In this document: one piece after another, positions 18,432-54,679 of the stretch
Layout: each line of letters begins with the position of its first letter
Position numbering within the stretch: the stretch's first letter is position 1
Assembly (NCBI GenBank): GCA_043810165.1
Contig: JBDROJ010000027.1
Location: 36,974-100,973, forward strand
From: a bacterium
Lineage (GTDB): Bacteria; Patescibacteriota; Patescibacteriia; Magasanikbacterales; GWA2-37-8
Length of the DNA stretch: 64,000 nucleotides
Reading direction: 5' to 3'
Position numbers and translations under genes: made by a program
Notes under the pieces: generated by a model
What the model saw: the letters and a program-made list of their open reading frames with translations, nothing else
The model's database searches: none
Told to the model about the DNA's origin: nothing

Positions 18432-18522
18432 ACTGTCATCCCGACCGAGCGTAGCGAGTGGAGGGATCTCAGTATAACACTAAGATCCCTGAACTCGGCT
18501 TTGTCCAGCTCAGGATGACAAT
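18432..18522. repeat. GC-rich nested palindromic repeat element (family 2 variant)
   Basis: CTGTCATCCCGACCGAGCGTAGCGAG...GGATGACAAT, with an internal GGGATCT/AGATCCC palindrome. A near-identical half-copy lies at 46392-46437. Confidence 0.75.
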
Positions 18523-18525
18523 AAT

Positions 18526-18963
18526 ATGGAAAAAACCCTTAAATTTAAAATTATAACCCCGGAAAAAATCGTTTATGAAGACGATATTTTTCAGGTTACA
18601 ATTCCTACATCGGATGGTGAAATTACTGTATTGGCTAATCATATTCCTTTAGTATCGGTTTTAAAAGCAGGGGATTTGATTATAAAAGACAAAAATGATC
18701 AACATCACATTGCTATTGCCGGTGGCTTTTTAGAAGTTAAATCCAATAATCAAATCATTATTTTGGCAGATAATGCTGAACGAGCTGAAGAAATTGATTT
18801 GGAACGAGCCGAAGAAGCTAGAAAACGTGCCGAAAAACAAATGAAACAAGCTAAGTCAACTGAAGACATTGACTTTGCCAAACTTCAAGGTATAATAGAT
18901 AGAGAAATGAACAGAATTAGGGTTGGAAAAAAGTATAAAAAATTACCTAAAGCAAGATCATGA
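18526..18963 (+). CDS. atpC: F0F1 ATP synthase subunit epsilon
   Basis: N-terminal beta-sandwich pattern (ITPEKIVYEDDIFQVTIPTSDGEITVLANHIPLVSVL) and a C-terminal helical hairpin. Confidence 0.85.
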   Translation: MEKTLKFKIITPEKIVYEDDIFQVTIPTSDGEITVLANHIPLVSVLKAGDLIIKDKNDQHHIAIAGGFLEVKSNNQIIILADNAERAEEIDLERAEEARKRAEKQMKQAKSTEDIDFAKLQGIIDREMNRIRVGKKYKKLPKARS

Positions 18964-19007
18964 AGTTAGATGCAATTACAAAATATTTAAATATATTACC
19001 ACCAATG

Positions 19008-19083
19008 CAGTCTTGATTGATTGTTTTGTGTTTTTTATACCTTCTTAAAAATAATAAAACAGTCAATCAAGACTGTTTTTTTG
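19008..19083 (+). terminator. rho-independent terminator of the atp operon
   Basis: 13-bp perfect stem CAGTCTTGATTGA / TCAATCAAGACTG followed by TTTTTTTT. Confidence 0.6.
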
Positions 19084-19133
19084 TTCTTTCGCTAACCCAA
19101 CACCATGTGGTGCTGGACAAGGAGGTAGATACA

Positions 19134-19502
19134 ATGGGAACCAACAACGTGCTTATCATAGGTGGAGGAGAAAAGGGGAATGTCATAGCTAGATTGCTGG
19201 CCAGCCAAAATTGGTTGGACAATATTCACCTGGTTGAAGAAACAACTGACTTGGCTTCTAATCTTAGGGCCGAATTAGGACAAACAATCCAAATTCACTC
19301 TAACTGTATAGAAATACCAACCAATATCCGAATAGTTTATGCAATAAGCGAACCAGTGGGCATGGACGCTATTAGACAAAAGATAGCCGAAAAAATTAAC
19401 GGGAAAACATTGATTGTTTGGGTAGCTCAAACTACTAATCTAAAGCTTTTACCACTTTTCCTCAAAAGCCAACTGGCAAATCTCTACGAAAGATCTATCT
19501 AA
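19134..19502 (+). CDS. Rossmann-fold NAD(P)-binding domain protein (TrkA-N/KTN-like), 122 aa
   Basis: The start was moved to the Met preceded by AAGGAGG. GxGxxG motif VLIIGGGEKGNVIARLL. The track ORF start at 19017 lies inside the terminator hairpin. Confidence 0.5.
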   Translation: MGTNNVLIIGGGEKGNVIARLLASQNWLDNIHLVEETTDLASNLRAELGQTIQIHSNCIEIPTNIRIVYAISEPVGMDAIRQKIAEKINGKTLIVWVAQTTNLKLLPLFLKSQLANLYERSI

Positions 19503-19529
19503 ATACTTAGCACTTTGAATTTTCCCACC

Positions 19530-19565
19530 AAGACCTCCGACTAGTCTCGGAGGTCTTCTTTTTTG
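19530..19565 (+). terminator. rho-independent terminator
   Basis: AAGACCTCCGActagtcTCGGAGGTCTT followed by CTTTTTTG. Confidence 0.6.
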
Positions 19566-19694
19566 CACACACTGTAACAAAAAGCCATTTTTCACGTCTA
19601 CTAAAGCAAAGGGGAAGGGCCAAGTCTTTTAATTTCTTGAATTTTCATTAACGAAAGAAGTTGTTCGTACCCGACCCTCCCTTTTTGTTTTTGT

Positions 19695-21461
19695 ATGATT
19701 GAAAAAAATAGAGCCAAACAAACATTAAAAATTTACTGGCAACATACCTGCAAATATAAATTTGTGGGATTTTTTCTTGTTTTTTCAGTAATGGGCGCGT
19801 CTTTGACAAATGTAATCAGGCCGTTATTTTTCAAACAATTTTTTGATATATTATCAAGTCAACAAGACAAAGGTCTGCTATTTGAAGCACTATTTTCAGT
19901 TTTAATGTTGGTTTTAATAACTGAAATTATTGAATGGTGCTTTTGGAGAATGGCTACCTATACAGCAATAAAATTTCAAGCAAAAATAATGGCTGACATA
20001 GCGAATAGGTGCTTTCAATACCTGCACAAACACTCTTTTTCTTATTTTAACAACAATTTCGTAGGATCTTTGGTTAAGAGGGTAAACCGCTTTGTTTATG
20101 CTTTCATGCATATTGCTGATGTTTTTATTTGGAATTTACTTCAGTTGTCAGTTAATATAATATTCATCGGCATAATTTTAACATACAAAAATTGGATTCT
20201 CGGTCTAATTGTTATTGGCTGGATCACATTATTTTTAAGCATTAATTGGTTCTTTACCAAATACAAATTAAAATATGACATCAAAAGGAGCGAGGCCGAT
20301 ACTGCCATTAGTCAAGTATTGGCTGACACCATTACCAATCAAAGCAATGTAAAATTGTTTTGCGGATACCAGCGCGAAGTTAGTCTATTTGAAAGAACCG
20401 TAAAAAAAGCAACAAAATTACGCTGTTTTACTTGGACTTTAGACAACATATTTGAAGCCATACAAGGCGCTTTAATGATAAGCTTGGAAATTGGAATTTT
20501 ATACATGGGCATGATTTTGTGGAGAAAAGGCTTGTTCACAGTGGGTGATTTTGTTTTATTACAATCTTATGCGCTTACAATATTTATGCGAGTTTGGGAC
20601 TTCGGACGAATTATTCGCCGTATTTATGAAAATCTTGCCGATGCTGAAGAGATGTCTGAAATTTTAGATACTCCTCATGAAATCCAAGACCTTAAAAATG
20701 CCAAACAATTGCAAGTCAAAAAAGGCAAGATTCAATTTCAAAATGTGACATTTTGCTACAATAAGACCCGCTGTGTACTGCAAAAATTAAACTTGGCAAT
20801 AAAACCAAAAGAAAAACTGGCATTAATTGGACCGTCAGGCGCCGGTAAAACTACTATGGTTAAGCTACTATTAAGAATGCATGATGTGACCGGCGGTAAA
20901 ATTTTAATTGACGGACAACAAGTCAAAGCTATTACGCAAGAAAGTTTGTGGCAGCATATAAGCATGGTACCTCAAGATCCAATATTATTTCACCGCAGTT
21001 TGATGGAAAATATCCGTTATGGAAAGCCGGAAGCAACAGATGAACAAGTATTTAAAGCCTCTAAATTAGCCCATTGTCATGAATTTATTTCTGAATTTCC
21101 TGATGGCTATGAAACAAAAGTGGGGGAAAGGGGAGTTAAACTATCAGGTGGAGAACGCCAGCGTGTGGCAATTGCCAGAGCAATATTGCGTAATGCGCCA
21201 ATATTAGTTTTGGATGAAGCCACTTCCAGCCTTGATTCTGAATCAGAACATCTAATCCAATCTGCTTTGGATACTTTAATGAAAAATAAGACAGTAATTG
21301 TGATTGCTCACCGCTTATCAACTATTATGAAAGTTGATAGGATCATTGTTGTTGATCAAGGCGGAATTGTAGAGCAGGGGACGCATATTCAGCTACTAAA
21401 GAAAAAAACTGGTATGTACAACAAATTATGGAAAATCCAGGCAGGTGGGTTTGTAGAATAA
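19695..21461 (+). CDS. ABC transporter, fused permease/ATPase exporter (MsbA/type I exporter-like)
   Basis: Six-TM N-terminal domain. Walker A GPSGAGKTT, signature LSGGERQRVAIARA and Walker B LVLDEATSSLD. Confidence 0.85.
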   Translation: MIEKNRAKQTLKIYWQHTCKYKFVGFFLVFSVMGASLTNVIRPLFFKQFFDILSSQQDKGLLFEALFSVLMLVLITEIIEWCFWRMATYTAIKFQAKIMADIANRCFQYLHKHSFSYFNNNFVGSLVKRVNRFVYAFMHIADVFIWNLLQLSVNIIFIGIILTYKNWILGLIVIGWITLFLSINWFFTKYKLKYDIKRSEADTAISQVLADTITNQSNVKLFCGYQREVSLFERTVKKATKLRCFTWTLDNIFEAIQGALMISLEIGILYMGMILWRKGLFTVGDFVLLQSYALTIFMRVWDFGRIIRRIYENLADAEEMSEILDTPHEIQDLKNAKQLQVKKGKIQFQNVTFCYNKTRCVLQKLNLAIKPKEKLALIGPSGAGKTTMVKLLLRMHDVTGGKILIDGQQVKAITQESLWQHISMVPQDPILFHRSLMENIRYGKPEATDEQVFKASKLAHCHEFISEFPDGYETKVGERGVKLSGGERQRVAIARAILRNAPILVLDEATSSLDSESEHLIQSALDTLMKNKTVIVIAHRLSTIMKVDRIIVVDQGGIVEQGTHIQLLKKKTGMYNKLWKIQAGGFVE

Positions 21462-21534
21462 TAGTTTGTAAAACTTCTTACATTCGGCTATAATTAAAAC
21501 ATCTCAAGCAAGAGATGTTTTTGTTAATTTATGT

Positions 21535-22326
21535 ATGGATTTAACTGAAGCCAAACAAAATAATACAATCCAAGCAAGACACCCGTGGGAGCTGGCCCGT
21601 TTTAGAGTGATTCTATTATTGATACAAAACCTTTTAAAATTAAATACGCAAAATCTCAAAATTTTAGATCTGGGTTGCGGTGATCTTTATATATGCAAAA
21701 AACTTTTACAGATATATCCATATCTAAAAATACACGCCGTGGACAAAAATCTATCCGGAAAGCAGATAGACTGGCTAAAAAAATCAAATACATCCGACAG
21801 ATTATTTGCGTACCAATCTATAAAAGACTTTGAGGATATTAATGACAGAGCTGGTTGCGACCTAATTTTACTATTAGATATTGTGGAACACATAGATGGT
21901 GATTCTATTTTTTTACAAAAATTAAGCAATTGTAATTTTGTGAATAAAAATACTTTTTTCCTAATAACCGTTCCGTCGTTCTCATCTTTATTTTCATCAC
22001 ATGACAAATTTTTAAAACACCACAGACGTTATAACAATTACGAATTAAAAAAACTAGTGGCTAATGCCGGATTTAAAATTTATCAATCGGGTTATTTTTT
22101 TTCAAGCTTGTTAATTCCAAGAATTATACAAGCTTTACTTGAAAAAATAGTCGGATCAAAAAATAAAAAACATGGGATCGGCCATTGGAAGCACGGAAAA
22201 ATTACTACCAATTTATTTAAAAACGTTCTTATTTATGATTTTAAATTATCTCTTATACTGCAAAAAATCGGAATCAAATTACCCGGCCTCTCTAACTATG
22301 TAATATGCAAAAAATCTGTATTATAA
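21535..22326 (+). CDS. class I SAM-dependent methyltransferase-like protein
   Basis: ILDLGCGDLYICKKLL motif I and an acidic motif II (DLILLLDIVEHI). Confidence 0.55.
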   Translation: MDLTEAKQNNTIQARHPWELARFRVILLLIQNLLKLNTQNLKILDLGCGDLYICKKLLQIYPYLKIHAVDKNLSGKQIDWLKKSNTSDRLFAYQSIKDFEDINDRAGCDLILLLDIVEHIDGDSIFLQKLSNCNFVNKNTFFLITVPSFSSLFSSHDKFLKHHRRYNNYELKKLVANAGFKIYQSGYFFSSLLIPRIIQALLEKIVGSKNKKHGIGHWKHGKITTNLFKNVLIYDFKLSLILQKIGIKLPGLSNYVICKKSVL

Positions 22327-23042
22327 TTCCATGCTATAACGAGGAAAACAGACTGCCGGTAGAAGAATTTAAAAAATTTTATACTGAAATAACAGATAGT
22401 TTTTATCTGTATTTCGTAAATGACGGCAGTACTGACAAAACTAAAATAATACTTGACGAGCTATGCATGAGCAGAGGAGATAGAATAAAAATTCTAAATC
22501 ATGATTGCAATAAAGGCAAAGCTGAAGCTGTGCGCACAGGCGTATTAAATGCTCTGGATGACAATAAATTTGATATATTTGGATATCTGGATGCAGATCT
22601 TTCAACGCCTCTGTCAGAAATTTATTTATTGCTGGAATCTTTAAATAAGGATGACTGCAATGCCATGGCTTTTGGTTCAAGGATAAAAAAACTGAATAGT
22701 AATATCCGAAGAAATACCAAAAGGCATATTTTTGGCAGATTATTTGCAACGACAACTAACCTGCTTTTAAAATTGCCGACGTATGACAGCCAATGTGGCG
22801 CAAAATTAATTAGAGCCGAATATGCCAGGGGGTTATTTAAAGAAGCATTCATCTCAAAATGGCTTTTTGATATTGAATTATTTTTCCGTTTTAAACGAAT
22901 GAACAGGGGTCTGAACAATAATTACAAAACCATTGAAGTCCCTTTGAATACATGGGATGAAAAGGGTGGCTCAAAAATCACGATGCGCGATTTAACAAAG
23001 ATGCCTCTTGATTTGATCAAAATATATTTTTATTATAAATAA
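22305..23042 (+). CDS. family 2 glycosyltransferase (polyprenyl-phosphate sugar synthase, DPM1/GtrB-like)
   Basis: IIIPCYNEE...VNDGSTDKT...DAD motifs of the GT-A fold. Confidence 0.8.
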   Translation: MQKICIIIPCYNEENRLPVEEFKKFYTEITDSFYLYFVNDGSTDKTKIILDELCMSRGDRIKILNHDCNKGKAEAVRTGVLNALDDNKFDIFGYLDADLSTPLSEIYLLLESLNKDDCNAMAFGSRIKKLNSNIRRNTKRHIFGRLFATTTNLLLKLPTYDSQCGAKLIRAEYARGLFKEAFISKWLFDIELFFRFKRMNRGLNNNYKTIEVPLNTWDEKGGSKITMRDLTKMPLDLIKIYFYYK

Positions 23043-23044
23043 AT

Positions 23045-24724: not shown

Positions 24725-24767
24725 GACCAGTTATTTGCCAATTGAGCGGTAATCAGCTATAATTAAA

Positions 24768-24796
24768 ATATCCCGATTTAATCGGGATATTTTTAG
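24768..24796 (+). terminator. rho-independent terminator
   Basis: ATATCCCGATTtaaTCGGGATAT followed by TTTT. Confidence 0.6.
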
Positions 24797-24804
24797 CATA
24801 AACT

Positions 24805-28013: not shown

Positions 28014-28085
28014 AATTACAGCTTGCCAAATACTGAAAAACAGGATAGAATACCAGAACCAATTAAATATTAAAACCATTAAAAT

Positions 28086-28478: not shown

Positions 28479-28479
28479 C

Positions 28480-30337: not shown

Positions 30338-30339
30338 TT

Positions 30340-40179: not shown

Positions 40180-41166
40180 ATGGAGAAATCAAATATACCA
40201 TTAATTAACCATATTCCTGACTTTCTGGAATATTGCGAGGTGGAAAAAGGGTTGTCGCCTATAACCACCCGTAATTATCATAATTTTTTAAAAACATTTG
40301 TTTCATGGTTAAAAATTTCCAAAAAAAAGGATACTAGACCCCACCAAATTACAGAAAAAGACATATGGAATTACAGGCTGTTTTTATCTAGAAAAAAGGA
40401 TGCTACTGGTCAGATATATATAAAAAAAACCACACAGAACTATTATTTGATTGCTCTTAGAAATCTTTTTAATTATCTTGCCATACGAAATATCAGCGCT
40501 ATTAATTCTGAAAAAATAAATTTACCAAAATTAACCGAAAAAGATAAAAAAATAAAATTTTTAAAATTTGAACAAATTGAAAAATTATTATCAATGCCCG
40601 ACATTGAAAAACATGATGGATTGCGAGATAGAGCTATTTTGGAAGTACTATACTCCACTGGTATGAGAGTATCAGAACTAACGTCGCTTAATATAGAACA
40701 GTTTGACACCCAAAATATTATCAAAGAGAAAACCAAAGATATGGAATTAAGCATTGCTGGCAAGGGTGGCTCAGTACGGGCAGTATATTTTTCCTCTCGT
40801 GCATTAAAATGGTTGGGAAGATACATGAATACTCGCAAAGACATGCTCTCTCCCCTATTTACAAATTACAAACAATCTTCTAATCCTGATGACGAACACC
40901 GTTTAAGCCCGCGTTCGGTTGAACGTATAGTGCGTAAATATACCATTATGGCCGGCCTACCAGTAAGTGCTACTCCACATACTCTAAGACATAGCTTTGC
41001 TACCGACTTGTTAGAGCAAGGCGCTGATTTACGCTCTGTGCAAGAACTTTTGGGACATAAAAATATTGTGACTACTCAAATTTATACCCATGTGACTAAT
41101 AAACAACTTCGTTCGGTACATAACAAATTTCATAGTGGAGGAAATAAAAAAACATTAAAAAAATGA
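40180..41166 (+). CDS. tyrosine site-specific recombinase XerC/XerD-like
   Basis: C-terminal catalytic region HTLRHSFATDLLEQGADLRSVQELLGHKNIVTTQIYTHV with the R..H..R..Y residues. Confidence 0.85.
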   Translation: MEKSNIPLINHIPDFLEYCEVEKGLSPITTRNYHNFLKTFVSWLKISKKKDTRPHQITEKDIWNYRLFLSRKKDATGQIYIKKTTQNYYLIALRNLFNYLAIRNISAINSEKINLPKLTEKDKKIKFLKFEQIEKLLSMPDIEKHDGLRDRAILEVLYSTGMRVSELTSLNIEQFDTQNIIKEKTKDMELSIAGKGGSVRAVYFSSRALKWLGRYMNTRKDMLSPLFTNYKQSSNPDDEHRLSPRSVERIVRKYTIMAGLPVSATPHTLRHSFATDLLEQGADLRSVQELLGHKNIVTTQIYTHVTNKQLRSVHNKFHSGGNKKTLKK

Positions 41167-42232: not shown

Positions 42233-43474
42233 TTATTTAAGATAATTAAGAGGATTTACAGGAATTCCATTTGAGCGAACTTCAAAATGAAGATGCGGAC
42301 CAGTAACGAATGGGCCTGCACCAACTGTGCCAGGAGTTCCTCCAGAATAGCCAATAAGATCACCTTTATTTACAAACTGATCTGGTACAACGGTGATTTT
42401 GCTCATATGTCCGTATAGAGTTGAAAGACTACCTGTATGGACCAACAATACATAGCTATAACATGAAGCACTATAGCAAAGTCTTGCATGGGCCACATAT
42501 CCTGATGAAGCTGCATACAACGGCGTCCCCTGTCCTATCCCAATATCAATACCACTATGTTCAAATACATGTCGGTACGGATAATCAGGATCGTGAAAAT
42601 ATGAGGTAATATATCTACTATTTGTCGGCCAATTAAACGAGGTATCTCCCCCGCCTTGAGAAATTTTATTTTGAGCCGCTAATTTCTTCTGAATTTCTCT
42701 TTCATAAGAACTAACTTCATCCTCAATGGCTTGATATTCTGTCTTCAAATTAGCCAACAAAGTCTGGTACTGTGACTCTGACCACTGTGTTTTAGCCAAT
42801 AAGCCATTTTTATAATTAGACTGATCCTGTTGATCTTGGCGCTGTAAAACAAGTTTTTTCTTTAATTCTTCTTGATCACTCTGATATTTTTCCGACTCTT
42901 TTTTCTTGGCATCTAATTCTTCTTTGCTTAAACGCAAGCTCTTTACGGTCCTTCCAAGATCTTGATAAACTGTTTCTAAATTTTGAATTTGATCATAAAA
43001 TTCAGAGAAGCTGTTGTTAGTTAACAAAATTTCCAAATAAGACTTATTCTGCTCGCGATTTATGTTGCGCAACATATTGCCTATTATACTCTTTTGCTTG
43101 GTAATCAACTTTTCTTTACCATCTATACTTATTTTCAAAGCGTCTATTTCCAATTGCGCCTTTTGAATTTTTTCATCAGTAAGATCGATGTCAGCTTGTA
43201 TTCTGGCAACATGATTCTCTATTATACTCAATTGATTTTTAAGTGAAACTGCTTCAAGCTGTTTTTCCTTGACATTTTCTTTGTACACGGCAATACTGTC
43301 TTCTAATTGTTTAATTTTCTCTTTTCTTTCGCTAATCTTTTTATTCAATTCACCGATCTCTTGTTCTGCAGTTTGAGCAAAAGAATTTTGTACTACAAAA
43401 ACTGGTTGTGCCAACAAGCTAAAAATTAAAATTGAAATTAATATTAATATTATGCGTTTCATGTTTATTGGCAA
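42233..43474 (-). CDS. M23/LytM-family peptidase with N-terminal signal/TM and long coiled coil (EnvC-like)
   Basis: C-terminal HxxxD...HxH motif region (GIDIGIG...HLHFEVR) preceded by ~250 aa of coiled coil. Confidence 0.8.
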   Translation of the reverse strand: MPINMKRIILILISILIFSLLAQPVFVVQNSFAQTAEQEIGELNKKISERKEKIKQLEDSIAVYKENVKEKQLEAVSLKNQLSIIENHVARIQADIDLTDEKIQKAQLEIDALKISIDGKEKLITKQKSIIGNMLRNINREQNKSYLEILLTNNSFSEFYDQIQNLETVYQDLGRTVKSLRLSKEELDAKKKESEKYQSDQEELKKKLVLQRQDQQDQSNYKNGLLAKTQWSESQYQTLLANLKTEYQAIEDEVSSYEREIQKKLAAQNKISQGGGDTSFNWPTNSRYITSYFHDPDYPYRHVFEHSGIDIGIGQGTPLYAASSGYVAHARLCYSASCYSYVLLVHTGSLSTLYGHMSKITVVPDQFVNKGDLIGYSGGTPGTVGAGPFVTGPHLHFEVRSNGIPVNPLNYLK

Positions 43475-43492: not shown

Positions 43493-43650
43493 CTGCCGTT
43501 GCGAGGAGTCAGGGTGTTATTGTCATTGCAAGCCTAAGCGACCCGCCTGCCAACGCCTGAAGTCAGAGGGCAATGACGGGCAGGAGCAATCTCATACTTA
43601 CTGTAGCAACGAGACTGCTCCGTCGCTACGCTCCTCGCAATGACGATGCT
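43493..43650. repeat. compound GC-rich palindromic repeat element (family 1, nested inverted repeats)
   Basis: Outer arms CGTTGCGAGGAG / CTCCTCGCAATGACG, with inner arms GTCATTGCAAGCC / GGGCAATGAC. Contains the 63-codon ORF 43452..43643, typical of repeat-derived pseudo-ORFs. Confidence 0.75.
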
Positions 43651-43679
43651 AATTTAAAAAGATTGGTATGATTTCAATA

Positions 43680-45152
43680 CTATACTACAATTCTTATGGC
43701 TTCCTCAATTCTTTGTAAAACTTTTTCTTTACCCAAAACACCAGCGATCTCAAATGGCCCTGGGGAATTCTTGCGCCCTGACAAAGCCACACGCATGGGC
43801 CAAAGCACTTCGCCATTAGTCAATTCATTTGTTTTGACCCATTCTACTATCCCCTGCTCTAGTTTTTCTTTGTCCCAGTCTTGAACACTAAATGTACTCA
43901 AATAATCTTTCAGGATTTCCAGATTTTTTTTGGTGGTTTGCTTATCGGATTTCTTCCAAATCAATAGTTCACTATCATACTCAAGCTTGCCAGCAAATAT
44001 AAAACCAACCGCTTCGGGCAAATCACTCAACTTATTCATACGCTCTTTTTCCAAAGCTACTACTTGTTCTAAATCTATATCTGTATGTCCAATATCTAGA
44101 CCTGCATTAACCAAAAATGGTTTACAGGCCTCTACCAAATCATCCAAATCCATACTGCGAATATACTGCTGGTTATACCAATCTAATTTATCTAAATTAA
44201 ATACGGCCGGAGCTTTAGAAACCTTATTAAAATCAAATTCTTTAATTAATTGCTCAAGACTAAATATTTCCCGTTCATCACCAGGATTCCAGCCCAAAAA
44301 AGCGATGAAATTAACCATGGCTTCAGGCAGATACCCGGCATCAATATAATCACGCACGCTTACATGCCCATGTCGCTTACTTAATTTTTGTTTCTTTTCA
44401 TTAACTAACAAAGATAAATGAGCATATTGAGGTAAATCCCAGCCAAACATTTTATAAAGCTGAATATGCTTTGGGGTTGATGGCAACCACTCTTCTCCTC
44501 TAATTATATGAGTAACTTCCATCAAATGGTCGTCAATTATGACTGCCAAATGATAAGTGGGAAAACCATCTGCCTTTAACAGCACCTGGTCATCAACTAA
44601 TTGATTTTTAAATTCTATTTCTCCCCTAACAATGTCCTTAATCACAGTCACCCCATCTTTTGGCATTTTCATGCGCACAATATACTCTTCTCCGGCCTCT
44701 ACTCTTTTTTTAGCCTCTTCTAGAGGTATCTCGCGACAATGGCCATCATAACCAGGAGCCATCTTGTTGACTTGTTGATATTCACGTAATTCATCCAGAC
44801 GTTCTTTGGTGCAAAAACAATGATAAGCATGGCCTTGATCTAACAATTGATCCAGATATTTTTTATAAATATCCAGGCGTTCTGATTGGATATATGGGCC
44901 ATTTTCGCCAGTTTGTGCAATATTATAGTCTTCTAATATAACTCCTTCATCAGGTTCTATACCTGCCCAAGCCAAAGAATATAACATATTTTCTACTCCG
45001 CCTTCAACATATCGTTCACGATCAGTATCTTCTACACGTAATAAAAATTTGCCATTTTGATTTTTAGCAAATAAATATTCAAACAAAGCAGTTCTCAAAC
45101 TGCCTACATGCAAAAATCCGGTTGGAGAGGGTGCAAATCGTGTTTTAATCAT
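43680..45152 (-). CDS. gltX: glutamyl-tRNA synthetase
   Basis: HIGH-region variant RFAPSPTGFLHVGSLRTAL and the KLSKR motif. Confidence 0.9.
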   Translation of the reverse strand: MIKTRFAPSPTGFLHVGSLRTALFEYLFAKNQNGKFLLRVEDTDRERYVEGGVENMLYSLAWAGIEPDEGVILEDYNIAQTGENGPYIQSERLDIYKKYLDQLLDQGHAYHCFCTKERLDELREYQQVNKMAPGYDGHCREIPLEEAKKRVEAGEEYIVRMKMPKDGVTVIKDIVRGEIEFKNQLVDDQVLLKADGFPTYHLAVIIDDHLMEVTHIIRGEEWLPSTPKHIQLYKMFGWDLPQYAHLSLLVNEKKQKLSKRHGHVSVRDYIDAGYLPEAMVNFIAFLGWNPGDEREIFSLEQLIKEFDFNKVSKAPAVFNLDKLDWYNQQYIRSMDLDDLVEACKPFLVNAGLDIGHTDIDLEQVVALEKERMNKLSDLPEAVGFIFAGKLEYDSELLIWKKSDKQTTKKNLEILKDYLSTFSVQDWDKEKLEQGIVEWVKTNELTNGEVLWPMRVALSGRKNSPGPFEIAGVLGKEKVLQRIEEAIRIVV

Positions 45153-45903
45153 GTAATTTAGATAACAAAATTCCGGCAGTTATGGCCACATTTAAAGATT
45201 CGGCTGAACCGCTTCCTTTTATAGTATACCGCTTATCCAGTAGTTTTTCAACTTGTGGATTAATTCCATGCGATTCTGAACCTAAAATATAAGCGGTCTT
45301 GATTTTTTTGTTTATTTTTAGCTCTTTTCCATTCATGGTCAAACCGGATATCTGATAACCTTTTTTCTTTAAACTAGCTAGGGTTTTGGCCAAGTCTTTA
45401 CTCTGAAATACTTTAACGCGAAAAATTGAACCCATGGTGGCGCGTACTGTCTTGGGATTGTATAAATCTACACAATCTTCAGACAAAACCACGCTATTAA
45501 CTCCAAACCAATCAGCTGTGCGAATAATAGCGCCGAGATTGCCCGGATCTTTAATACAATCTAAACAAATAATTGAATTACCGCCAATCTCATCTAACTC
45601 ATATCCAATCTGTTTTACTATAGCTAATACTCCCGGAAAAGTATCGGTATCTTTTATCTTGCCCACATCATTATCATTGCAAAAGTCTACTACTATGTGT
45701 TTTTTGTGAGCTAGATCTATTATTTTTATAAATTCTGGCTCTTGTTTCTTATTATTCTGCACAATCACTCGTTGTACCTGTGCACTCGATTCTATTGCCT
45801 CCACCATTCCTTTTACTCCCTCAACCACAAATTCACTATGCTCGCGTCGGTATTTTTTTTGTTGTAGTTTATTTATGTGCTTTAAAATTTTTGTTTGAAG
45901 CAT
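45145..45903 (-). CDS. SpoU/TrmH-family RNA 2'-O-methyltransferase (RlmB-like)
   Basis: SPOUT motifs: GNLGAIIRTADWFGV, LGSESHG and LNVAITAGILLSKL. Confidence 0.8.
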   Translation of the reverse strand: MLQTKILKHINKLQQKKYRREHSEFVVEGVKGMVEAIESSAQVQRVIVQNNKKQEPEFIKIIDLAHKKHIVVDFCNDNDVGKIKDTDTFPGVLAIVKQIGYELDEIGGNSIICLDCIKDPGNLGAIIRTADWFGVNSVVLSEDCVDLYNPKTVRATMGSIFRVKVFQSKDLAKTLASLKKKGYQISGLTMNGKELKINKKIKTAYILGSESHGINPQVEKLLDKRYTIKGSGSAESLNVAITAGILLSKLHD

Positions 45904-46655
45904 AATACTAGGTATAAAAATAAAAAAGTAGCTTTGAAAATTCTTTTTATACGTTTGGGTTGTTTAATTAAGCGATATAGCCACTCTAGACCTACTTTTT
46001 GCATCCACCTGGGAGCGCGTTTGGTTTTGCCAGAAATATAATCAAAAGCCCCGCCCACGCCCATGGCTAATTTAATACTTGATAATTTAGACAAGTTCTC
46101 ATATATCCATTTTTCTTGCTTACCATGACCAAAGGCAACAAATATAATATCCGGTTTGGTTGTGTTTATTCTTTTAATTAAGTCTTGATTTTGCTCTGAA
46201 GTTACATTCTTCAAATCCGGTCCTTTGTCATAACCAGCAATTTTTAAATTAGAGTATTTTCCATTCAATTTTTGGGTAGTTTTTTCTATCACCCGATCGT
46301 CACCAGAACCTAATAGATACACGCTTCTCCCCTGCTCTGAAGCTATTTGGCAAATATCTTGCATAAAATCTACTCCGGGAACACGTTCAAGAGATCCCTC
46401 CAATCGCTTCGCTCGGTCGGTCTGCAGGGATGACAATTTATATTTCAACCACAATCCAAACCCATCGCAAATATTCAAATCACCACTATTTAATACTTTT
46501 TTAAAATACTCGTCTTTTTGCGCATCAACCAGCATTTCCGGATTGGGCGTAAAAACCTTATGTTGTTTATCAGAATTCAAAAAACCTTCCGCCTTTTCCA
46601 AGGCTTGTTTTTTATTTACACGATCTATTCTTATTCCCATTACTTGTAGATGCAT
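45882..46655 (-). CDS. WecB/TagA/CpsF-family (GT26) glycosyltransferase carrying an in-frame half-copy of the palindromic repeat
   Basis: GT26 pattern (ICDGFGLWL...RVPGVDFM...IFVAFGHGKQEKWI). The start was trimmed to MHLQVMGIR. Residues LSSLQTDRAKRLEG are encoded by the repeat copy at 46392-46437. Confidence 0.7.
   Translation of the reverse strand: MHLQVMGIRIDRVNKKQALEKAEGFLNSDKQHKVFTPNPEMLVDAQKDEYFKKVLNSGDLNICDGFGLWLKYKLSSLQTDRAKRLEGSLERVPGVDFMQDICQIASEQGRSVYLLGSGDDRVIEKTTQKLNGKYSNLKIAGYDKGPDLKNVTSEQNQDLIKRINTTKPDIIFVAFGHGKQEKWIYENLSKLSSIKLAMGVGGAFDYISGKTKRAPRWMQKVGLEWLYRLIKQPKRIKRIFKATFLFLYLVLCFKQKF
46392..46437 (-). repeat. partial (single-arm) copy of the family-2 palindromic element inside the TagA-like CDS
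   Basis: The reverse complement TGTCATCCCTGCAGACCGACCGAGCGAAGCGATTGGAGGGATCTC aligns over ~45 nt with the 18432-18522 element. Confidence 0.7.
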
Positions 46656-46790
46656 ACTTATGATACATAATAACACAACTTGACAGGTTTTGACAATATA
46701 TGCTATTATCACTCTATAAGCAAGAGTGATAATAATCTCTTAATGATTAATACAATAATATAAATTATATTCTAAATATTTTATAAAAAT

Positions 46791-49427: not shown

Positions 49428-49437
49428 ATAATCACAA

Positions 49438-49466
49438 TTAAAAACCCCGGTTCATGGACCGGGGTT
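49438..49466. terminator. bidirectional rho-independent terminator (clpB and the convergent minus-strand gene)
   Basis: AAAACCCCGGTtcatggACCGGGGTTTT. Confidence 0.65.
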
Positions 49467-49470
49467 TTGA

Positions 49471-51807
49471 TTATATTTTTTCTTTTTGCAGATCATCTAT
49501 TATATCCTTGGATTCTTCCGGGGTTAGCTTCCAACCAGGCGGGCTATCTTGATCTAGAATCTGCCTAAGTAATCTTCCTCCGTTTTTTTGATCAAGTGGC
49601 TTGGGCGCTAATCCATAACCGCTTAGCATTTTTTTTACTTCATCGCCTGTTCTCTGCCTTCTTTTTTTGACAGTTCCTTTCTTTTTAATTTTACCAGAGT
49701 GCGCAACTACTTCAGGCGCAAATACGAGTTTTGATTTTTGATCTGGCCTAACATCAGTCTTTGTTTTTGCCTTTAAATCAACCATATCCTTGCCCGCTGT
49801 TTTTGCCTTGGATAATATTTTTTTATATACCTCTTTTTTTCTAGCTTGTTCAGCCTTAAAATCAATTCTCTTAATAGCTTTAGCCTTTTCCTCTTCTGGC
49901 TGTTCCACATCATTTTGAAAAGCTTCATAAGCAAGCCCGCCTGCGACTGCGCCAATACCGGCAACTGCGATTGCTTTTTTCCAATGTTTTTTTGCAAAAT
50001 TTGGTTCTTCATTATACCTTCTAACTCTTGGTTCAGCAACTTGAGTAAATAATTCCGCACCTCTTACCGGATCATACATTCCTTCAGGTTTTATTTTAGC
50101 TTTACCAGCTGTGAGAGACTTAATTGCATCCAAAGTCACACGCATTAAAGCCATACCTCCCACGAACTGACCTTTTTTAATGGTTTTCAGCCATGCTATA
50201 TCAACATTTTTACCGTATAACAATTTATCAAAGAAACCAACTTTTGTCTTATATGACCGCTCCAATACTCCATTAAACAACGCTAACGTCATATCTCTGG
50301 CTATTTTGTCAGCTTCTCTCTCCAAATCCGCATGCACATCCGTGGAAAAATTTTCATAGACTTGTTCTAGAGTGGGCTTTATGATATTTACAGCCAATAT
50401 TCTTTGTATTTCTGATTTATCTTTTCTGATCAAGGCGCTTTTAATTTCTTCCCATCTTATTGTAAATCTGGCTTTTAAATTTTCTTCCAAAGTAGCAAAT
50501 TCTTGGGCATCAATCATAGCAGGGTCCAGGTTTTCTATTGACTCATTATCAACAAACGGCGATTCGGCCGGTTTTTCAAAATCATCCTCTGTTTCTTTTT
50601 CTTGTACAATTTCATGGCCCTGTTTTTTTATAAACTCATTCAAAGGAACCCTAATCATTTTTCCCTGACTTTTTATTTCTTCCCATTCTTCGTCAGTAGC
50701 TAAGACAGCCTCTTTTTCGTTAGATACAAATGGTGATTCGGCCGGTTTTTCATAAACAGTCTTAGAATCTAAATAATTCTCCCTGGTCATTTTCACTTGT
50801 TTTTCAAAATTTTTAGCTACCTGGACTGGTAAATTTTCTATATCTTCTTCATAATGAGAAATTATCTCTCCTATGGTGGAAATATACATTTCTTCTCCGC
50901 CTTGCTCAATATCTTCAGGTTCAACATCTTGCAACATCTTTGCATATTGTGATATTTCAGATTTCAAAGATTGTGCTTCTTTAGTAATTAACAAACTTGT
51001 GGGCAATTCTTTGATTTTTTTCAGCAAGATTGTAAGCCTGTCTCTCAATCGCTTAAGACCAAATTTCAAATTGGGTGGTTCTCCTTCTCCGCCACCACCG
51101 CCTGCTTTGGCTGAATTCTCTTCAACTTGAGTGGATTGCGAAAACGAACCGGGCTGGCTATTATCACCGGATACATTGTCCACGGACGCGGTTCCAACCA
51201 CGGTTTCTGACTTGTGAAGGCTCTCAAGAATTTGAGTGAATTTTTTAATCTCTTCCAAACTATAATTTTTGGCCTTTTTTACCAATTTCCACATCTTTTC
51301 GGCAGTTGCTTGATCCTTTATTTTTCCTATCATTTGAGCTGCTAAAACATATTCAACTGCCCTTTCAGTTTTTTCTAAATCATGGTGGCTCAAATGTTCC
51401 GGATCTACGGAAGCAAAAACTTTGGCGTATTTATCCCTTAAATCAGAATTCTGTATTTGCTCGGCCCTTTGTTCAATTTCTGTCAACTTATTTTCTATAA
51501 ATTCACGTTCTTGCTTTTTCAATTGCGCTACCCGATCTTTTAATCTGGCCAAATCTTGATTGACCGTATCATCTTCAAAGCCACCTTCTCTAATCATCAT
51601 GTCAGTAATATTTAAATCTGATTCAAGATCTTGATAATCTGATTTTTTTTGTATTTTAATATCAGCCAAATCTTTTCTTAAAGATTCAACCAATTTCAAA
51701 CGAGATTCTTTTAACTTTGGAGTAAACTGAAGAACTTCGGCGCCTTGTCTTTGTGTTTCTCTATTGTCTTCGCCAAACGAATGAGTATTTTTAGCAAAGT
51801 CAATCAT
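49471..51807 (-). CDS. large coiled-coil hypothetical protein (778 aa) with an internal direct repeat
   Basis: Long charged helical protein. Repeated peptide (Y/F)EKPAESPFV(S/D)NE is encoded by a ~30-nt direct DNA repeat at ~50553 and ~50725. Glycine-rich patch AGGGGGEGEPP and one hydrophobic segment near the C-terminus. Confidence 0.5.
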   Translation of the reverse strand: MIDFAKNTHSFGEDNRETQRQGAEVLQFTPKLKESRLKLVESLRKDLADIKIQKKSDYQDLESDLNITDMMIREGGFEDDTVNQDLARLKDRVAQLKKQEREFIENKLTEIEQRAEQIQNSDLRDKYAKVFASVDPEHLSHHDLEKTERAVEYVLAAQMIGKIKDQATAEKMWKLVKKAKNYSLEEIKKFTQILESLHKSETVVGTASVDNVSGDNSQPGSFSQSTQVEENSAKAGGGGGEGEPPNLKFGLKRLRDRLTILLKKIKELPTSLLITKEAQSLKSEISQYAKMLQDVEPEDIEQGGEEMYISTIGEIISHYEEDIENLPVQVAKNFEKQVKMTRENYLDSKTVYEKPAESPFVSNEKEAVLATDEEWEEIKSQGKMIRVPLNEFIKKQGHEIVQEKETEDDFEKPAESPFVDNESIENLDPAMIDAQEFATLEENLKARFTIRWEEIKSALIRKDKSEIQRILAVNIIKPTLEQVYENFSTDVHADLEREADKIARDMTLALFNGVLERSYKTKVGFFDKLLYGKNVDIAWLKTIKKGQFVGGMALMRVTLDAIKSLTAGKAKIKPEGMYDPVRGAELFTQVAEPRVRRYNEEPNFAKKHWKKAIAVAGIGAVAGGLAYEAFQNDVEQPEEEKAKAIKRIDFKAEQARKKEVYKKILSKAKTAGKDMVDLKAKTKTDVRPDQKSKLVFAPEVVAHSGKIKKKGTVKKRRQRTGDEVKKMLSGYGLAPKPLDQKNGGRLLRQILDQDSPPGWKLTPEESKDIIDDLQKEKI

Positions 51808-51816
51808 AAAATTTAA

Positions 51817-52476
51817 TTAGGTAAACAAGTAGCGTTTTTTATATTTAACCACCCATGATCCGGAAAGCAATACGCCTAATACAAAGCCCGCTAATATATT
51901 TAAGACAAAACTAGGACGGGCAGGAAAACTCGGGTATATTGGGGCGCTTACCACTTTTATAATCACATTTCCACCAACATATTCCCAACCCTGGCTTGAT
52001 AAAGTTTTTGCAACAGCATTAGCCAAATTAACCGCATCACCCTTGCTGTAACTGTAGGCTTTAATATTCATAATTCCGGCGCCATAAACCATGCTAGACT
52101 GAATATCTTTAGCCCATTTTTTTCTTTTCTTTTTTTCAGTTAAATTATCCCACTGATTTCTATCAAACTTCTGCAGGCTATTGTCCATAACGCGCTTGTA
52201 AAAATCACTGGTTTTCATTATTTGCCCCAAATTTTCACCGATTTTTTCAGCTGATCTGGACTGCGTATATGGATCAACTCCGCTATTGTCGCGGGAAATA
52301 ATCAATATTTGAGATTCAGCGCTGTATTGTCTTGGCAAAAGTACAGAGATAAGAGTTGAACAAAAAATAAAAAACAAACCCCAAGCTAAAACTAGTTGGT
52401 AATTTTTTAATAGAACTTTAAGCATATTCTTTAAATTAATTCTAAAGGGATAAGCCCTTAAAGAAAATTCCCCCAA
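51817..52476 (-). CDS. Wzz/CapA-like polysaccharide co-polymerase (chain-length determinant)-like bitopic membrane protein
   Basis: N-terminal TM followed by PRQYSAESQILI (compare PKYQA..QILV of CapA/Wzz) and a C-terminal TM after a P-rich segment (PARPSFVLNILAGFVLGVLL). Confidence 0.5.
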   Translation of the reverse strand: MGEFSLRAYPFRINLKNMLKVLLKNYQLVLAWGLFFIFCSTLISVLLPRQYSAESQILIISRDNSGVDPYTQSRSAEKIGENLGQIMKTSDFYKRVMDNSLQKFDRNQWDNLTEKKKRKKWAKDIQSSMVYGAGIMNIKAYSYSKGDAVNLANAVAKTLSSQGWEYVGGNVIIKVVSAPIYPSFPARPSFVLNILAGFVLGVLLSGSWVVKYKKRYLFT

Positions 52477-52515
52477 AGAGCAAGCATTAAACTGGCAAGC
52501 TCTGAAAGAATAATT

Positions 52516-53631
52516 TTAATTATCAATGGTTTTTTTAACCACCGGCAATTCAAGCTCTAAGAGTTTGCCATTGCGCAATAATTTTATTTTAACTTTTTGA
52601 TTATTACTAAGAGTATACCATAGATTTGCCTCGTCAACAAGCAATCCGTTAATTTCTGTTATAAAATCGCCAACGCGCAACAGACTTTTTTCCTGCCAAA
52701 CGCCATCTATAACAAATCCATCTTCTCTTAAGCCATTAATAATTACAGGCTGTCCCTGACTGAACCAACCATTCACACCCAATGAAGGATATTCCAAACT
52801 TTTTTTATTTAAAAATTCAGACAGCATCCTGGTGATATAAGTATTGGGAAGCATTTTACCCTGGCCCATGCTAATCCCCACTACTCTGCCCTGCCCATTC
52901 ACAACTATCTTTCCCTGGCCGAAAGAACCACTTAAAAAATAACTGGAAGCCGGCGCCGTATCCAAGCGCAATTTTTGTTTGGTCAAATACGACCTCTGAC
53001 CGATTAAACTGTAATTCCAATCGCCTCCATCATAAACAAAAACTTCATCGCCATTTTTAATTGTCTCGCTAAAATTAACCACTTTAAATTGTCCTGATTT
53101 TATTTTTAAATAAACCAATCCTGAATTTTTGTCATTAACTTGCTTTTCTATTTCATAAACTCGATCATCTTGGCTCAAAGCCATCATTTTATTGTTCTTG
53201 CCAGGTAGCACAAAATCAGGCTTATACATAACTACCCAACCGTCTGAACTAACTAAAATGGCCTCGCCTAATTTTAATTGGTCATCCAGATAAATTGATT
53301 TGGAAGGTTCGGATAAATTAGAAGCCGATTGATAAACATATATGATTCGACTGGCTATCTCGCTATGAACCCTGTCTTCCAGCTGATTACGCGATATGGC
53401 CGGACGCTGATAAGAGGTTATCCAAATATCACCGGCTCCAACACTTGGCCATATCCAGCCCAAGACCATGGCCGCGCCAGACATACTTACAGCCAAACTA
53501 AAAAAAGCAACAAACAACAAAAATTTAAGTCTTTGCCAAAGACGATGGTTATACAAATTACATGAAGGCACGGGTAAATGCGGTGATATTTTTTTCATAA
53601 TTGTTATGTTCAGTTTAGATGTTATTTCCAA
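52516..53631 (-). CDS. membrane-anchored trypsin-like (HtrA-like, probably catalytically degenerate) domain + PDZ protein
   Basis: N-terminal TM. SGSFGQGKIVVNGQGRVVGI resembles the GNSGGPL...G.V.GI segment, but the His/Asp positions are not conserved. C-terminal PDZ-like GDFITEINGLLVDEANLWYTLSNNQKVKIKLLRNGK. Confidence 0.4.
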   Translation of the reverse strand: MEITSKLNITIMKKISPHLPVPSCNLYNHRLWQRLKFLLFVAFFSLAVSMSGAAMVLGWIWPSVGAGDIWITSYQRPAISRNQLEDRVHSEIASRIIYVYQSASNLSEPSKSIYLDDQLKLGEAILVSSDGWVVMYKPDFVLPGKNNKMMALSQDDRVYEIEKQVNDKNSGLVYLKIKSGQFKVVNFSETIKNGDEVFVYDGGDWNYSLIGQRSYLTKQKLRLDTAPASSYFLSGSFGQGKIVVNGQGRVVGISMGQGKMLPNTYITRMLSEFLNKKSLEYPSLGVNGWFSQGQPVIINGLREDGFVIDGVWQEKSLLRVGDFITEINGLLVDEANLWYTLSNNQKVKIKLLRNGKLLELELPVVKKTIDN

Positions 53632-54434
53632 CGAACCGCGAAAATTAAAAATAATAAAAATAAAATAAAATTTGCTCCTAAAAATTTAATTTGTCTTGCC
53701 CATTTGATTCCTTCAACAGTCAGGTTAAAACGCATTAACAGCCATAGAATATACCAAATCCAAATTAATATCAAACTGCCAACCATATGCCCAAAAGGCA
53801 GTTTTGATACTACCCAAATCAATTGCAATATTAAAATAAAAAACAATACTAAAGAAATTAAAAACTGCTTGCCGTATTTTAAACCATATTCCCACCACCA
53901 CCACCCGGCTAAAACCGTGCTGATTATGGCGGACATTATATACCAGACCCAATTATTAATTTGATATGCTATTTGAAATGAAATTAAGGCCTGTACGCCT
54001 GCGAAAATTCCGCTTAAGCCAACGGCCGTCATAATAAAACGCCATCTCATATGAGGCTTCATGGAAACAATCAAACTTATTTTAGAAGTCGGTAAAAACC
54101 AAAAGCTTAAAAAAGTCATTAGCAAAAATACAAGAGATAAAAGATACCAGCTTAAATTAGCTAAATGATCAACCGAATCTCTGTCTGTAAAGAGCAGTAG
54201 TAATACCAGCCCCAAACTCAATATTAACAAAGCCAAATAATGACGCCATCGTATTGCTTCCAATGGGTAATACATAAATCTGATAAAAATTAACCAGAGA
54301 GATTGCCTGCAGATCAAAATTATAACCAAAAACCACCAAGTCGGGGTTATTGTTAAAGAATATAAAAATAACGCACTCAAAAACAGATCAAAAATGGCTA
54401 CTAAACGAGGATGTAAAGAAATGGATTTTAGCAT
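53622..54434 (-). CDS. polytopic membrane protein, Trp-rich, hypothetical
   Basis: 7-8 predicted TM helices. Overlaps the downstream gene by 10 nt. Confidence 0.45.
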   Translation of the reverse strand: MLKSISLHPRLVAIFDLFLSALFLYSLTITPTWWFLVIILICRQSLWLIFIRFMYYPLEAIRWRHYLALLILSLGLVLLLLFTDRDSVDHLANLSWYLLSLVFLLMTFLSFWFLPTSKISLIVSMKPHMRWRFIMTAVGLSGIFAGVQALISFQIAYQINNWVWYIMSAIISTVLAGWWWWEYGLKYGKQFLISLVLFFILILQLIWVVSKLPFGHMVGSLILIWIWYILWLLMRFNLTVEGIKWARQIKFLGANFILFLLFLIFAVRWK

Positions 54435-54551
54435 AAATTTATCTTATTATACACTAAAATTGCTAAAAAGTCAAGTTTTGGCCATTGCTATCCAAATTAA
54501 ATTGTGCTATTCTAATATCTATTAAAGCCATACCAAGTTTTTTAAATTAAT

Positions 54552-54679
54552 CCTGTCATTGCGAGCGTAAGTGTTACTGTCATTGCGAGCGTAGCGAAGC
54601 AATCTCGTCGGTTCTAGTAATAACGAGATTGCTTCGCTACGCTCGCAATGACAAAAAAAACACGGCTCGCAATGACAGA
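54552..54679. repeat. GC-rich nested palindromic repeat element (family 1, full compound copy)
   Basis: Inner perfect 31-bp inverted repeat TGTCATTGCGAGCGTAGCGAAGCAATCTCGT / ACGAGATTGCTTCGCTACGCTCGCAATGACA, flanked by outer arms CTGTCATTGCGAGCG / GGCTCGCAATGACAG. Confidence 0.8.

Follow-up and report, generated by a model that had tools for sequence, protein, structure and literature searches.

GC-rich palindromic repeats of a Magasanikbacteria-like genome as probable ORF-less CGTC/TGTC-tagged REP elements, with the GIY-YIG nuclease Ssn as their candidate mobilizer

What are the GC-rich palindromes scattered through an AT-rich stretch of a candidate-phylum genome, and how did they come to lie both between genes and inside them? 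The question is raised by a 64-kb stretch of contig JBDROJ010000027.1 (GenBank assembly GCA_043810165.1, positions 36,974 to 100,973), hereafter the window, in which an earlier reading, referred to here as the original prediction, had recognized two families of nested palindromic repeats. We found that five loci of the window carry TGTC-tagged, hairpin-forming units, three of them intergenic and two in frame within genes. With a probability that we put at roughly three in four, these repeats are copies, devoid of an open reading frame (ORF), of a repetitive extragenic palindromic (REP) element of the CGTC/TGTC-tagged type, a class now called Ssn-related motifs (SRM), and would have been mobilized by the nuclease Ssn, encoded elsewhere in the genome or since lost. 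The original prediction of non-autonomous repeats akin to MITEs (miniature inverted-repeat transposable elements), REPs or Rickettsia palindromic elements (RPEs), with the enzyme residing elsewhere, is supported and can be specified: the repeats are head-to-head dimers, one singleton, and composites of CGTC/TGTC-tagged REP hairpins. Since the nearest relatives of the encoded GuaA (after the host's own) are annotated as Candidatus Magasanikbacteria, the host is a Magasanikbacteria-like metagenome-assembled genome of the Patescibacteria.

All five copies were found where they had been placed or within a few bases, and the common CTGTCAT... start is seen in each, with small variations. The first element (18433-18521; z = -4.3 for the fold of the element as a single strand compared with shuffles, the score used throughout) is a head-to-head heterodimer, with a left unit on the plus strand (18434-18470, TGTC-ATCCC-(20-nt loop GACCGAGCGTAGCGAGTGGA)-GGGAT-CTC) and a right unit on the minus strand (18482-18520, TGTC-ATCCTGA...TTCAGGGAT-CTT). 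The second (43493-43646, fold -60.2 kcal/mol, z = -3.7) is a partly degenerate composite, in which the right unit, on the minus strand, reads CGTC-ATTGC-GAGGAGCGTAGCGACGGA-GCAGT-CTC, while in the left unit the tag is degenerate and a further short GTCATTGC...GCAATGAC palindrome interrupts the unit. The third (46391-46437, minus strand), TTGTC-ATCCC-(long loop with CGAGCGAAGCGA)-GGGAT-CTC, had been taken for a half-copy, but it is one complete single unit; alone, it folds no better than shuffles (z = -0.1). The fourth (54546-54685, fold -90.4 kcal/mol, z = -16.1) is a composite, with outer partial units at 54552-54571 and 54660-54679 around a perfect head-to-head homodimer, each unit of which is TGTC-ATTGC-GAGCGTAGCGAA-GCAAT-CTC. 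The fifth (59811-59955, z = -10.6) is also a composite and reaches beyond the limits given originally; its inner head-to-head dimer (59853-59930) lies between a degenerate plus-strand unit (59811-59843) and a degenerate outer arm (59941-59955).

Nested inverted repeats with an inner palindrome of up to 31 nt are indeed present, repeat detection giving perfect 31-nt arms for the inner dimer of the fourth element (54578-54608 and 54623-54653). The fourth and fifth elements, however, align end to end and represent a single composite of ~130-145 nt in duplicate (two full units around a spacer, with a partial unit on either side), not independent nestings. Other features of the original prediction held only in part. 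From the supposedly shared core, CGAGCG(T/A)AGCGA recurs in the copies, but the CGAGCGTAGCGA form is not constant, being replaced by GTAAGCGA in the guaA copy and by GAAGCGA in the tagA copy. Likewise, the elements exceed the background (window GC 0.362), but their whole-element GC is 0.44-0.57, and the 55-60% that had been given is not attained by any whole element measured. The enrichment of the motifs in the window is clear: GTCATTGCGAGC has nine matches with at most two mismatches vs 2.76 expected (0 of 100 shuffles reach nine), CGAGCGTAGCGA has six at the same tolerance vs 0.84, and GCGAAGCAATC has five with at most one mismatch vs 0.99.

The predicted location of the repeats at operon boundaries and inside genes is corroborated by the annotation of their neighbors, which relies mostly on Pfam. 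The first element lies in the 108-nt spacer between atpD (17023-18417, plus strand) and atpC (18526-18963, plus strand), and the second between the gene for an M23 peptidase (start at 43474, minus strand) and gltX (stop at 43680, minus strand). The third is located in frame in a tagA/wecG-like glycosyltransferase gene (45882-46712, minus strand; Glyco_tran_WecG, E = 8.9e-54). The fourth is found between divergent genes, 30 nt upstream of smpB (54715-55170, plus strand), which is followed by a one-piece transfer-messenger RNA (tmRNA; 55355-55752, plus strand, above the Rfam gathering threshold), and the fifth is in frame in guaA (58589-60469, plus strand). The terminator scan gave no terminator-like site overlapping any element (that of the atp operon, 19056-19079, is outside the first one), and the promoter scan gave no conspicuous promoter-like site on the side of smpB. 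Identity with a known structured RNA, which would have spoken against a repeat, found no support, as the Rfam scan of the window at gathering thresholds passed the tmRNA only. A relaxed Rfam scan of the smpB-upstream copy, the sole element so scanned, returned only plant and animal microRNA-precursor models far below their thresholds, i.e. hairpin noise, and a literature search with the literal repeat strings returned only chance primer matches.

The order of parts in a unit is an unpaired Y-GTC tag, a stem opening with A-T, a long loop with GAGCG(N)AGCGA, and a C-rich tail. Each arm thus has its own small hairpin, the stem of which varies by family while the loop core is constant: ATTGC/GCAAT (family 1), ATCCC/GGGAT and its relatives (family 2), as well as ATTCC/GGAAT and ATCTC/GAGAT. 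In 11 of 11 aligned units from the window and its relatives, TGTCAT...CGA is held in common. This organization resembles that of the CGTC-tagged REP superfamily (CGTC-1 to CGTC-4) described by Di Nocera, De Gregorio & Rocco (2013, BMC Genomics 14:522; PMC3733652), which takes in dRS3 of Neisseria as well as RPE-4 and RPE-6 of Rickettsia conorii, and whose units are defined by a 5' CGTC tag (variants TGTC and CCTC), an 8-9-bp stem opening with A-T, a loop of 4-5 nt, and a tail with the consensus CCA. They occur mostly as head-to-head dimers with spacers, chiefly between co-directional genes, with some in-frame intragenic copies, and neither a dedicated transposase nor any tyrosine transposase flanked by them is reported (PMC3733652).

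We assign the window repeats to this class because the tag, the A-T stem start, and the head-to-head dimers agree with the published definition, the tail being likewise short and C-rich. In the window units GTC is preceded by C or T, four of the five loci within the 64 kb are head-to-head dimers or composites, and no transposase is adjacent to them. The differences concern the stems (5-7 bp, i.e. ATTGC, ATCCC, or ATCCTGA, vs 8-9 bp), the loops (12-28 nt with GAGCG(N)AGCGA vs 4-5 nt, although exceptional loops have been described for Bradyrhizobium CGTC-1; PMC3733652), and the tails (CTC, CTT, or CCT/CCC vs CCA); two window copies, unlike members of the superfamily, are composites with an extra partial unit on each side. 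Among the loci fetched for comparison (labelled with L-numbers, e.g. L121, L149, L198 or L213), 123 contain 342 GTC-tagged units, vs 12-60 for control tags. Of these units, 252 have C and 64 have T ahead of GTC, while 232 end in a CCA tail and 25 in a CTC tail. Beside long-loop units, the fetched loci contain canonical families (stems of 8-9 bp, loops of 4-5 nt), and canonical 8-bp stems are present in the candidate-phyla loci L121, L194 and L239.

The short hairpins with an unpaired 5' tag, their inverted dimers, and GTAG within the loop of some copies (CGAGCGTAGCGA) also bring to mind the GTAG-type REPs and REPINs, which are moved by REP-associated tyrosine transposases (RAYT), i.e. IS200-like enzymes of the Y1 type. 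The resemblance extends to a single-copy partner nuclease gene bracketed by units and to recognition of single-stranded DNA, but the partner enzymes differ (HUH Y1 transposase vs GIY-YIG). The tag at the foot of the window hairpins is TGTC, not GTAG, and the loop-internal GTAG changes to GAAG or GCAG in other copies. The absence of a nearby transposase, stated in the original prediction, is confirmed by a Pfam scan of ~50 window ORFs, which revealed none and no Y1_Tnp match either, the sole recombinase being a XerC/D-like gene (40180-41166). In view of these data, and of the published absence of tyrosine transposases flanked by CGTC units (PMC3733652), movement of the window repeats by a RAYT is highly improbable, and the earlier suggestion of a TnpA(REP)/IS200 tyrosine transposase as the enzyme class is probably wrong. 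A classical MITE derived from an insertion sequence was considered too and rejected: the elements do have inverted termini, but four insertion sites show no evident target-site duplication, as had been noted originally, and no transposase of an insertion sequence was found. Comparison of filled and empty atpD|atpC sites does not define a duplication either, and the ATTAAT that flanks the smpB copy on both sides is itself palindromic, hence uninformative in this respect.

The repeats are not unique to the window. A scan of one genome per species with the pattern GTCATTGCGAGC-N35-65-GCTCGCAATGAC detected family-1 termini in at least 120 loci from many phyla, and viral contigs contributed 24 further family-1 loci. 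The hosts among the listed matches, with a GC of 34-72%, include Bradyrhizobium (dozens of loci), sphingomonads, Bosea, Coxiellaceae, Zixibacteria, Planctomycetota, Bacteroidota, Anaerolineae, Elusimicrobiota, Aminicenantes, and Eubacteriales. The family-1 consensus across the listed loci consists of GTCATTGCGAGCG(N)AGCGAAGCAATCCAG, a variable center, and the mirror image; the Bradyrhizobium loci carry the ATTGC type with a 12-nt loop, as in the window. A blastn search of plasmids with the 74-nt inner dimer, a query too short for more, returned two Novosphingobium replicons at E = 1e-3. The patescibacterial host lineage is new for this class of repeats and is mentioned in the main text of neither PMC3733652 nor PMC11893778.

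Evidence of insertion comes from comparison with relatives, for which the atpD|atpC junction is suited. Among 80 related candidate-phyla loci fetched via AtpC, the spacer could be located in 70. The closest relatives are empty, with spacers of 2, 4, 8, or 20 nt or with overlapping genes, while 89 nt of the host's spacer are taken up by the element. A related family-2 dimer occupies the junction in L149, and in L213 a related head-to-head dimer encloses a gene for Ssn (ssn) there.

The same junction provides grounds for an alternative, according to which the hairpins are chiefly functional RNA or DNA structures under selection (intercistronic stabilizers, processing sites, or attenuators), repetition being secondary. 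In 8 of 15 close relatives the spacer holds a strongly folding insert of 83-200 nt (z from -3.4 to -11.2), mostly unrelated in sequence; the host's element is not a terminator and so would be co-transcribed, and its right end provides a Shine-Dalgarno-like AGGA ~10 nt ahead of the atpC ATG. Many REPs have been argued to act as RNA elements (PMC3733652), and a fixed RNA hairpin in this spacer may modulate the stability of the mRNA or the translation of atpC. The original suggestion that this copy may affect transcript processing gains some indirect support from the unrelated long hairpins found there in relatives. However, the same sequence occurs in contexts as different as two ORFs and a divergent promoter region, the nearest relatives do with spacers of 2-20 nt, and the arms are near-identical across many phyla around variable centers, unlike a locally selected hairpin. 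We therefore regard selection for function as rather doubtful as the chief explanation; it can be reconciled with a mobile repeat that was co-opted secondarily and in this sense is a partial, not an exclusive, rival.

Hairpins of 67-114 nt were observed at the atpD|atpC junction also in L151, L152, L154, L155, L159, L160, L162, L174/L175, L211, and L226. They are mostly AT-rich (GC 0.22-0.37; ~0.5 in L155 and L174) and show no sequence kinship to each other, several being made of mirrored short tandem motifs (e.g. five copies of GCCTCGTAA in L155); their fold z-scores range from -3.4 to -11.2. It seems that this junction either attracts hairpins or needs one. In L179, L217, L220, and L221 (spacers of ~490-510 nt), as well as in L168, L171, and L172, the spacer holds an extra small ORF; by eye, some of these ORFs resemble the four-helix-bundle proteins of 23S rRNA intervening sequences, and others seem to represent a conserved ORF of ~50 residues.

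Both intragenic copies appear to be read through in frame. The guaA ORF is intact (626 residues, with all domains detected by Pfam), and the fifth element encodes approximately residues 408-456, including VIASVSEASPLLQNQQDCFAYARND. Compared with its homologs, the protein has extra residues behind the conserved CLCS motif, and the tell-tale peptides recur in several relatives. In the AlphaFold model (predicted template-modeling score 0.80) residues 413-418 and 423-453 are predicted as coil with a predicted local distance difference test score below 50, between confidently modeled flanking domains. The third element encodes roughly LSSLQTDRAKRLEGS in the tagA-like protein, where comparison with the solved TagA structure 7mpk places a net insertion of nine residues exactly at the unit. 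In both genes the palindrome is thus in frame and the ORF preserved, as in RPEs. None of four insert-encoded peptides matched an NCBIfam family (E up to 10; that RPE-domain models are in the library is presumed, unconfirmed). Insert-derived peptides such as VIASV..., HCERSEAI..., and ...ARNDK are to be expected in the proteins of these genomes and should be mistaken neither for frameshifts nor for novel domains.

TGTC-tagged units are present in frame in the loop after CLCS in six of eight related guaA genes, the host's among them, and the loop contents vary. The window and L121 have ATTGC composites, L122 an ATTGT/ATTGC dimer, L238 an ATCCC singleton, and L240 an ATCCT singleton, with one more unit located elsewhere. 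In L239 three in-frame units (gene nucleotides 1240-1361, ~residues 414-454) are found, one a long-loop ATCCT unit and the other two a canonical head-to-head dimer resembling the NTS sequence of Neisseria (see below), with 8-bp stems and 4-nt loops. L123 has units at another site only, and in L241, the nearest relative, the loop is empty, 25 residues long, and AT-rich. Because unit families, reading frames, and unit numbers differ between the relatives, the sequences argue for repeated hits on a tolerant loop.

The Rickettsia palindromic elements described by Ogata and co-workers in 2000 and 2002 are said to lie in frame in housekeeping protein genes, at positions compatible with the protein fold. 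The parallel with the window copies comprises in-frame palindromes in protein genes of a small AT-rich genome of a host-dependent bacterium. The host phylum is different, and the tie to RPE-4 and RPE-6 is only via their published equivalence with CGTC-4 and CGTC-1, respectively (PMC3733652).

Which enzyme could move such units? Chenal et al. (2025, Nat Commun 16:2388; PMC11893778) defined the NTS sequence CGTCATTCCCGCGMAVGCGGGAATCYRG and a degenerate SRM motif, which flank ssnA, the gene for a 94-residue single-domain GIY-YIG protein (cd10448), in an NTS-ssnA-NTS architecture that was likened to an insertion sequence. According to the biochemical data, which cover the homologs from Neisseria and Wolbachia, the protein binds the hairpin exclusively in single-stranded DNA and exclusively on the strand that bears the tag, the cut being made a few nucleotides 5' of the tag; its role in Neisseria is the restriction of transforming single-stranded DNA (PMC11893778). 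The window units follow the same tag-hairpin-tail logic, with a higher share of intragenic copies (two of five vs ~2% for NTS in N. meningitidis; PMC11893778), and in two candidate-phyla loci units of the window type are arranged in the order unit-ssn-unit. At the atpD|atpC junction of L213 a head-to-head ATCTC-type pair surrounds a GIY-YIG ORF of ~100 residues. L198 contains three consecutive ATTGC/ATCGC heterodimers, the outer two of which are empty (spacers of 14 and 18 nt), while the middle one holds a GIY-YIG ORF of 95 residues. Both ORFs match PF01541; the L213 protein is 44% identical to a 94-residue ORF of N. gonorrhoeae located in an NTS array, and the enclosed ORFs together show 41-44% identity to the 94-residue Neisseria protein.

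Homologs of ssn were identified with tblastn on plasmids and chromids of Rhizobium, Sinorhizobium, Shinella, Sphingobium, Novosphingobium, Azospirillum, Neisseria, Planktothrix, and Spirosoma. Seven of the eight ssn-homolog loci that were fetched are flanked by CGTC/TGTC-tagged units according to a tag-and-stem scan (for Sphingobium, according to the reading of its flanks), and the eighth, from Novosphingobium, has mirror-image CGTC-tagged hairpins with a stem lacking the A-T start. The association is not due to background density of units, because all genuine units in the 50-kb control regions of S. meliloti and A. lipoferum are located no farther than ~350 nt from ssn. The cassettes occur in housekeeping operon spacers (sufB|sufC in A. 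lipoferum, L228; gltA|lpxB in S. meliloti, L231) or between defense genes (MmeI and DrmA in Planktothrix, L234), a type of location like that of the ORF-less window dimers.

The published SRM search sequence, HGTCWYN(0-2)YYVSBRHN(0-5)WNVSBRGN(0-2)RNCYNB (PMC11893778), matches canonical units in L121, L228, L231, and L232. Because it misses both the window units and the ssn-flanking units of L198 and L213, the long-loop form would, judged by sequence, represent a variant beyond the current operational definition of SRM, yet one that is widespread and associated with ssn in candidate-phyla relatives.

Several observations weigh against the assignment of the window repeats to this class and against Ssn as their mobilizer. 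The lengths of their stems and loops depart from the CGTC definition, and the SRM motif has no match in the window (shuffle mean 0.1) or in L198, L213, and L149. Searches with two hidden Markov models, built from two and from ten sequences, revealed no ssn in the 64-kb window and none within ~4 kb of 144 family-1 dimers elsewhere, so that for the host genome the link to Ssn rests on relatives; this absence is, on the other hand, to be expected if the dimers greatly outnumber the gene. Neither a target-site duplication nor a conserved target was found, and the role published for Ssn in Neisseria is the restriction of transforming DNA, not the movement of repeats. As to the guaA loop, the copies may alternatively go back to one old insertion that later diverged rather than to separate insertions. 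Two further searches for a partner were also negative: clustering of ORFs within 1.5 kb of the 144 dimers gave no consistent neighbor, the clusters being spurious high-GC ORFs or shared prophage and orthologous regions, and among viral contigs only chance matches to ssn relatives were obtained, none of them confirmed.

A further argument against Ssn as mobilizer, and the main rival on direction, is that the dimers originate and propagate in a different way, with ssn as a selfish gene homing into their spacers, a parasite rather than a mobilizer. Such homing into pre-existing dimers would suit the filled dimer of L198 with an empty dimer of the same type on either side, the presence of ssn in the sufB|sufC and gltA|lpxB spacers, always within or beside units, and the published cleavage, which adjoins the hairpin and is not within a distinct target (PMC11893778); repair-mediated copying could make use of the homology between the conserved arms. 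Neither the origin of the dimers nor their spread across phyla is accounted for in this way, however, and the restriction of units in the S. meliloti and A. lipoferum controls to the surroundings of ssn fits a self-contained cassette better. On balance, we consider a purely parasitic ssn unlikely.

The sequences show the class of the repeats, its presence in many phyla, insertion at sites that are empty in relatives, in-frame tolerance in a loop predicted as disordered, and units of the window type around ssn in relatives, whereas mobilization by Ssn and any regulatory effect are inferred. For mobilization by Ssn, the following scheme can be proposed. In autonomous versions, the spacer of the dimer would hold ssn, encoding a single-domain GIY-YIG nuclease of ~95 residues, while the window copies are ORF-less. 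When the DNA becomes single-stranded (e.g. during replication, repair, or DNA uptake), each unit would fold into a hairpin, and in a head-to-head dimer Ssn would cut at each outer boundary, on opposite strands, as extrapolated from the published cutting of the tagged strand. Copying or movement would then involve the dimer as a unit, whether or not it contains ssn, Ssn being provided in trans from elsewhere in the genome or having been lost by now. The window copies would then be either miniature derivatives served in trans or relics, and would persist where they do little harm, i.e. in operon spacers and in disordered surface loops, where they can be read through in frame. A stronger version, in which a single active mobile element of candidate phyla has the long-loop TGTC units as its non-autonomous form and the ssn cassette as its autonomous one, lands repeatedly at the permissive atpD|atpC junction and guaA loop after CLCS, and can be read as protein, is put forward tentatively, the odds being somewhat against it.

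The link to the partner nuclease was already published in 2025 (PMC11893778), and the class itself will be no surprise to the specialist; what has been gained is that odd GC-rich palindromes are now placed in a defined repeat class with a known partner enzyme. In the literature searched we did not find the class in Patescibacteria, the widespread long-loop form (ATTGC or ATCCC stem, GAGCG(N)AGCGA loop) that escapes the SRM motif, a Rickettsia-like occurrence of in-frame units within essential enzymes encoded by a reduced genome, with one GuaA loop apparently hit repeatedly, or filled (ssn) and empty dimers as direct neighbors and at one and the same junction of relatives. The long-loop variant, the GuaA hits, and the filled and empty dimers all bear on how these repeats spread. 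Because the long-loop form escapes the motif, surveys based on it undercount both the repeats and their association with ssn. Filled and empty dimers in such arrangements are the kind of evidence needed to argue for Ssn cassettes as the source of miniature dimers. If the units and the cassette did form one active element, the recognition range of Ssn would extend past the published motif, and very small genomes would offer a minimal system for the spread of CGTC REPs and RPE-type palindromes, a question open since 2000.

These genomes may also contain another case, distinct from the first, in which a small nuclease goes together with a palindrome. In L121 (3540-4050) a gene for a DUF559/MTES_1575 endonuclease is flanked by another GC-rich palindrome, of the CCTCTCCCC...GGGGAGAGG type, and the GuaA homolog P0011 has an endonuclease at residues 1-130 and, at a second site (~623-650), the seemingly palindrome-derived peptide PFTRGGLGRG. 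This DUF559/Vsr-like endonuclease (fused upstream of guaA in P0011) was considered as the partner of the window repeats and rejected, since it is flanked by the CCTCTCCCC.../...GGGGAGAGG palindrome and not by TGTC units.

A few other features of the window deserve mention. The tmRNA is of the standard one-piece type, and the tag peptide predicted by ARAGORN is long (25 residues, ANLYTKAKTAVAQMFNSYNFAPAMA). Region 1-1360 has an unusually high GC (0.43 on the whole, reaching 0.70 in islands) and contains overlapping ORFs on both strands (73-582 and 866-1321) without a Pfam match. Region 5720-6290, located between a cysteine desulfurase gene (4411-5616) and nifU (6295-6768), comprises 570 nt of GC above that of its surroundings; it has no Rfam match and no ORF of at least 90 residues, and its minus strand may, by eye, contain a pair of short ORFs that overlap. 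A small hairpin that occurs twice (62394-62430 and 63949-63985; 78% identity, consensus AAAAC(N)CCCCGATATA(N)ATCG(N)GGGGTT) may represent a second short repeat or a common type of terminator. Finally, unique long AT-rich inverted repeats with arms of 20-40 nt are located at gene ends (5617-5709, 6772-6860, 9370-9458, 19008-19075, 55202-55301, and 56970-57057), only the one after atpC coinciding with a terminator-like call; this genome seems prone to such long hairpins at gene ends, irrespective of the TGTC repeats.

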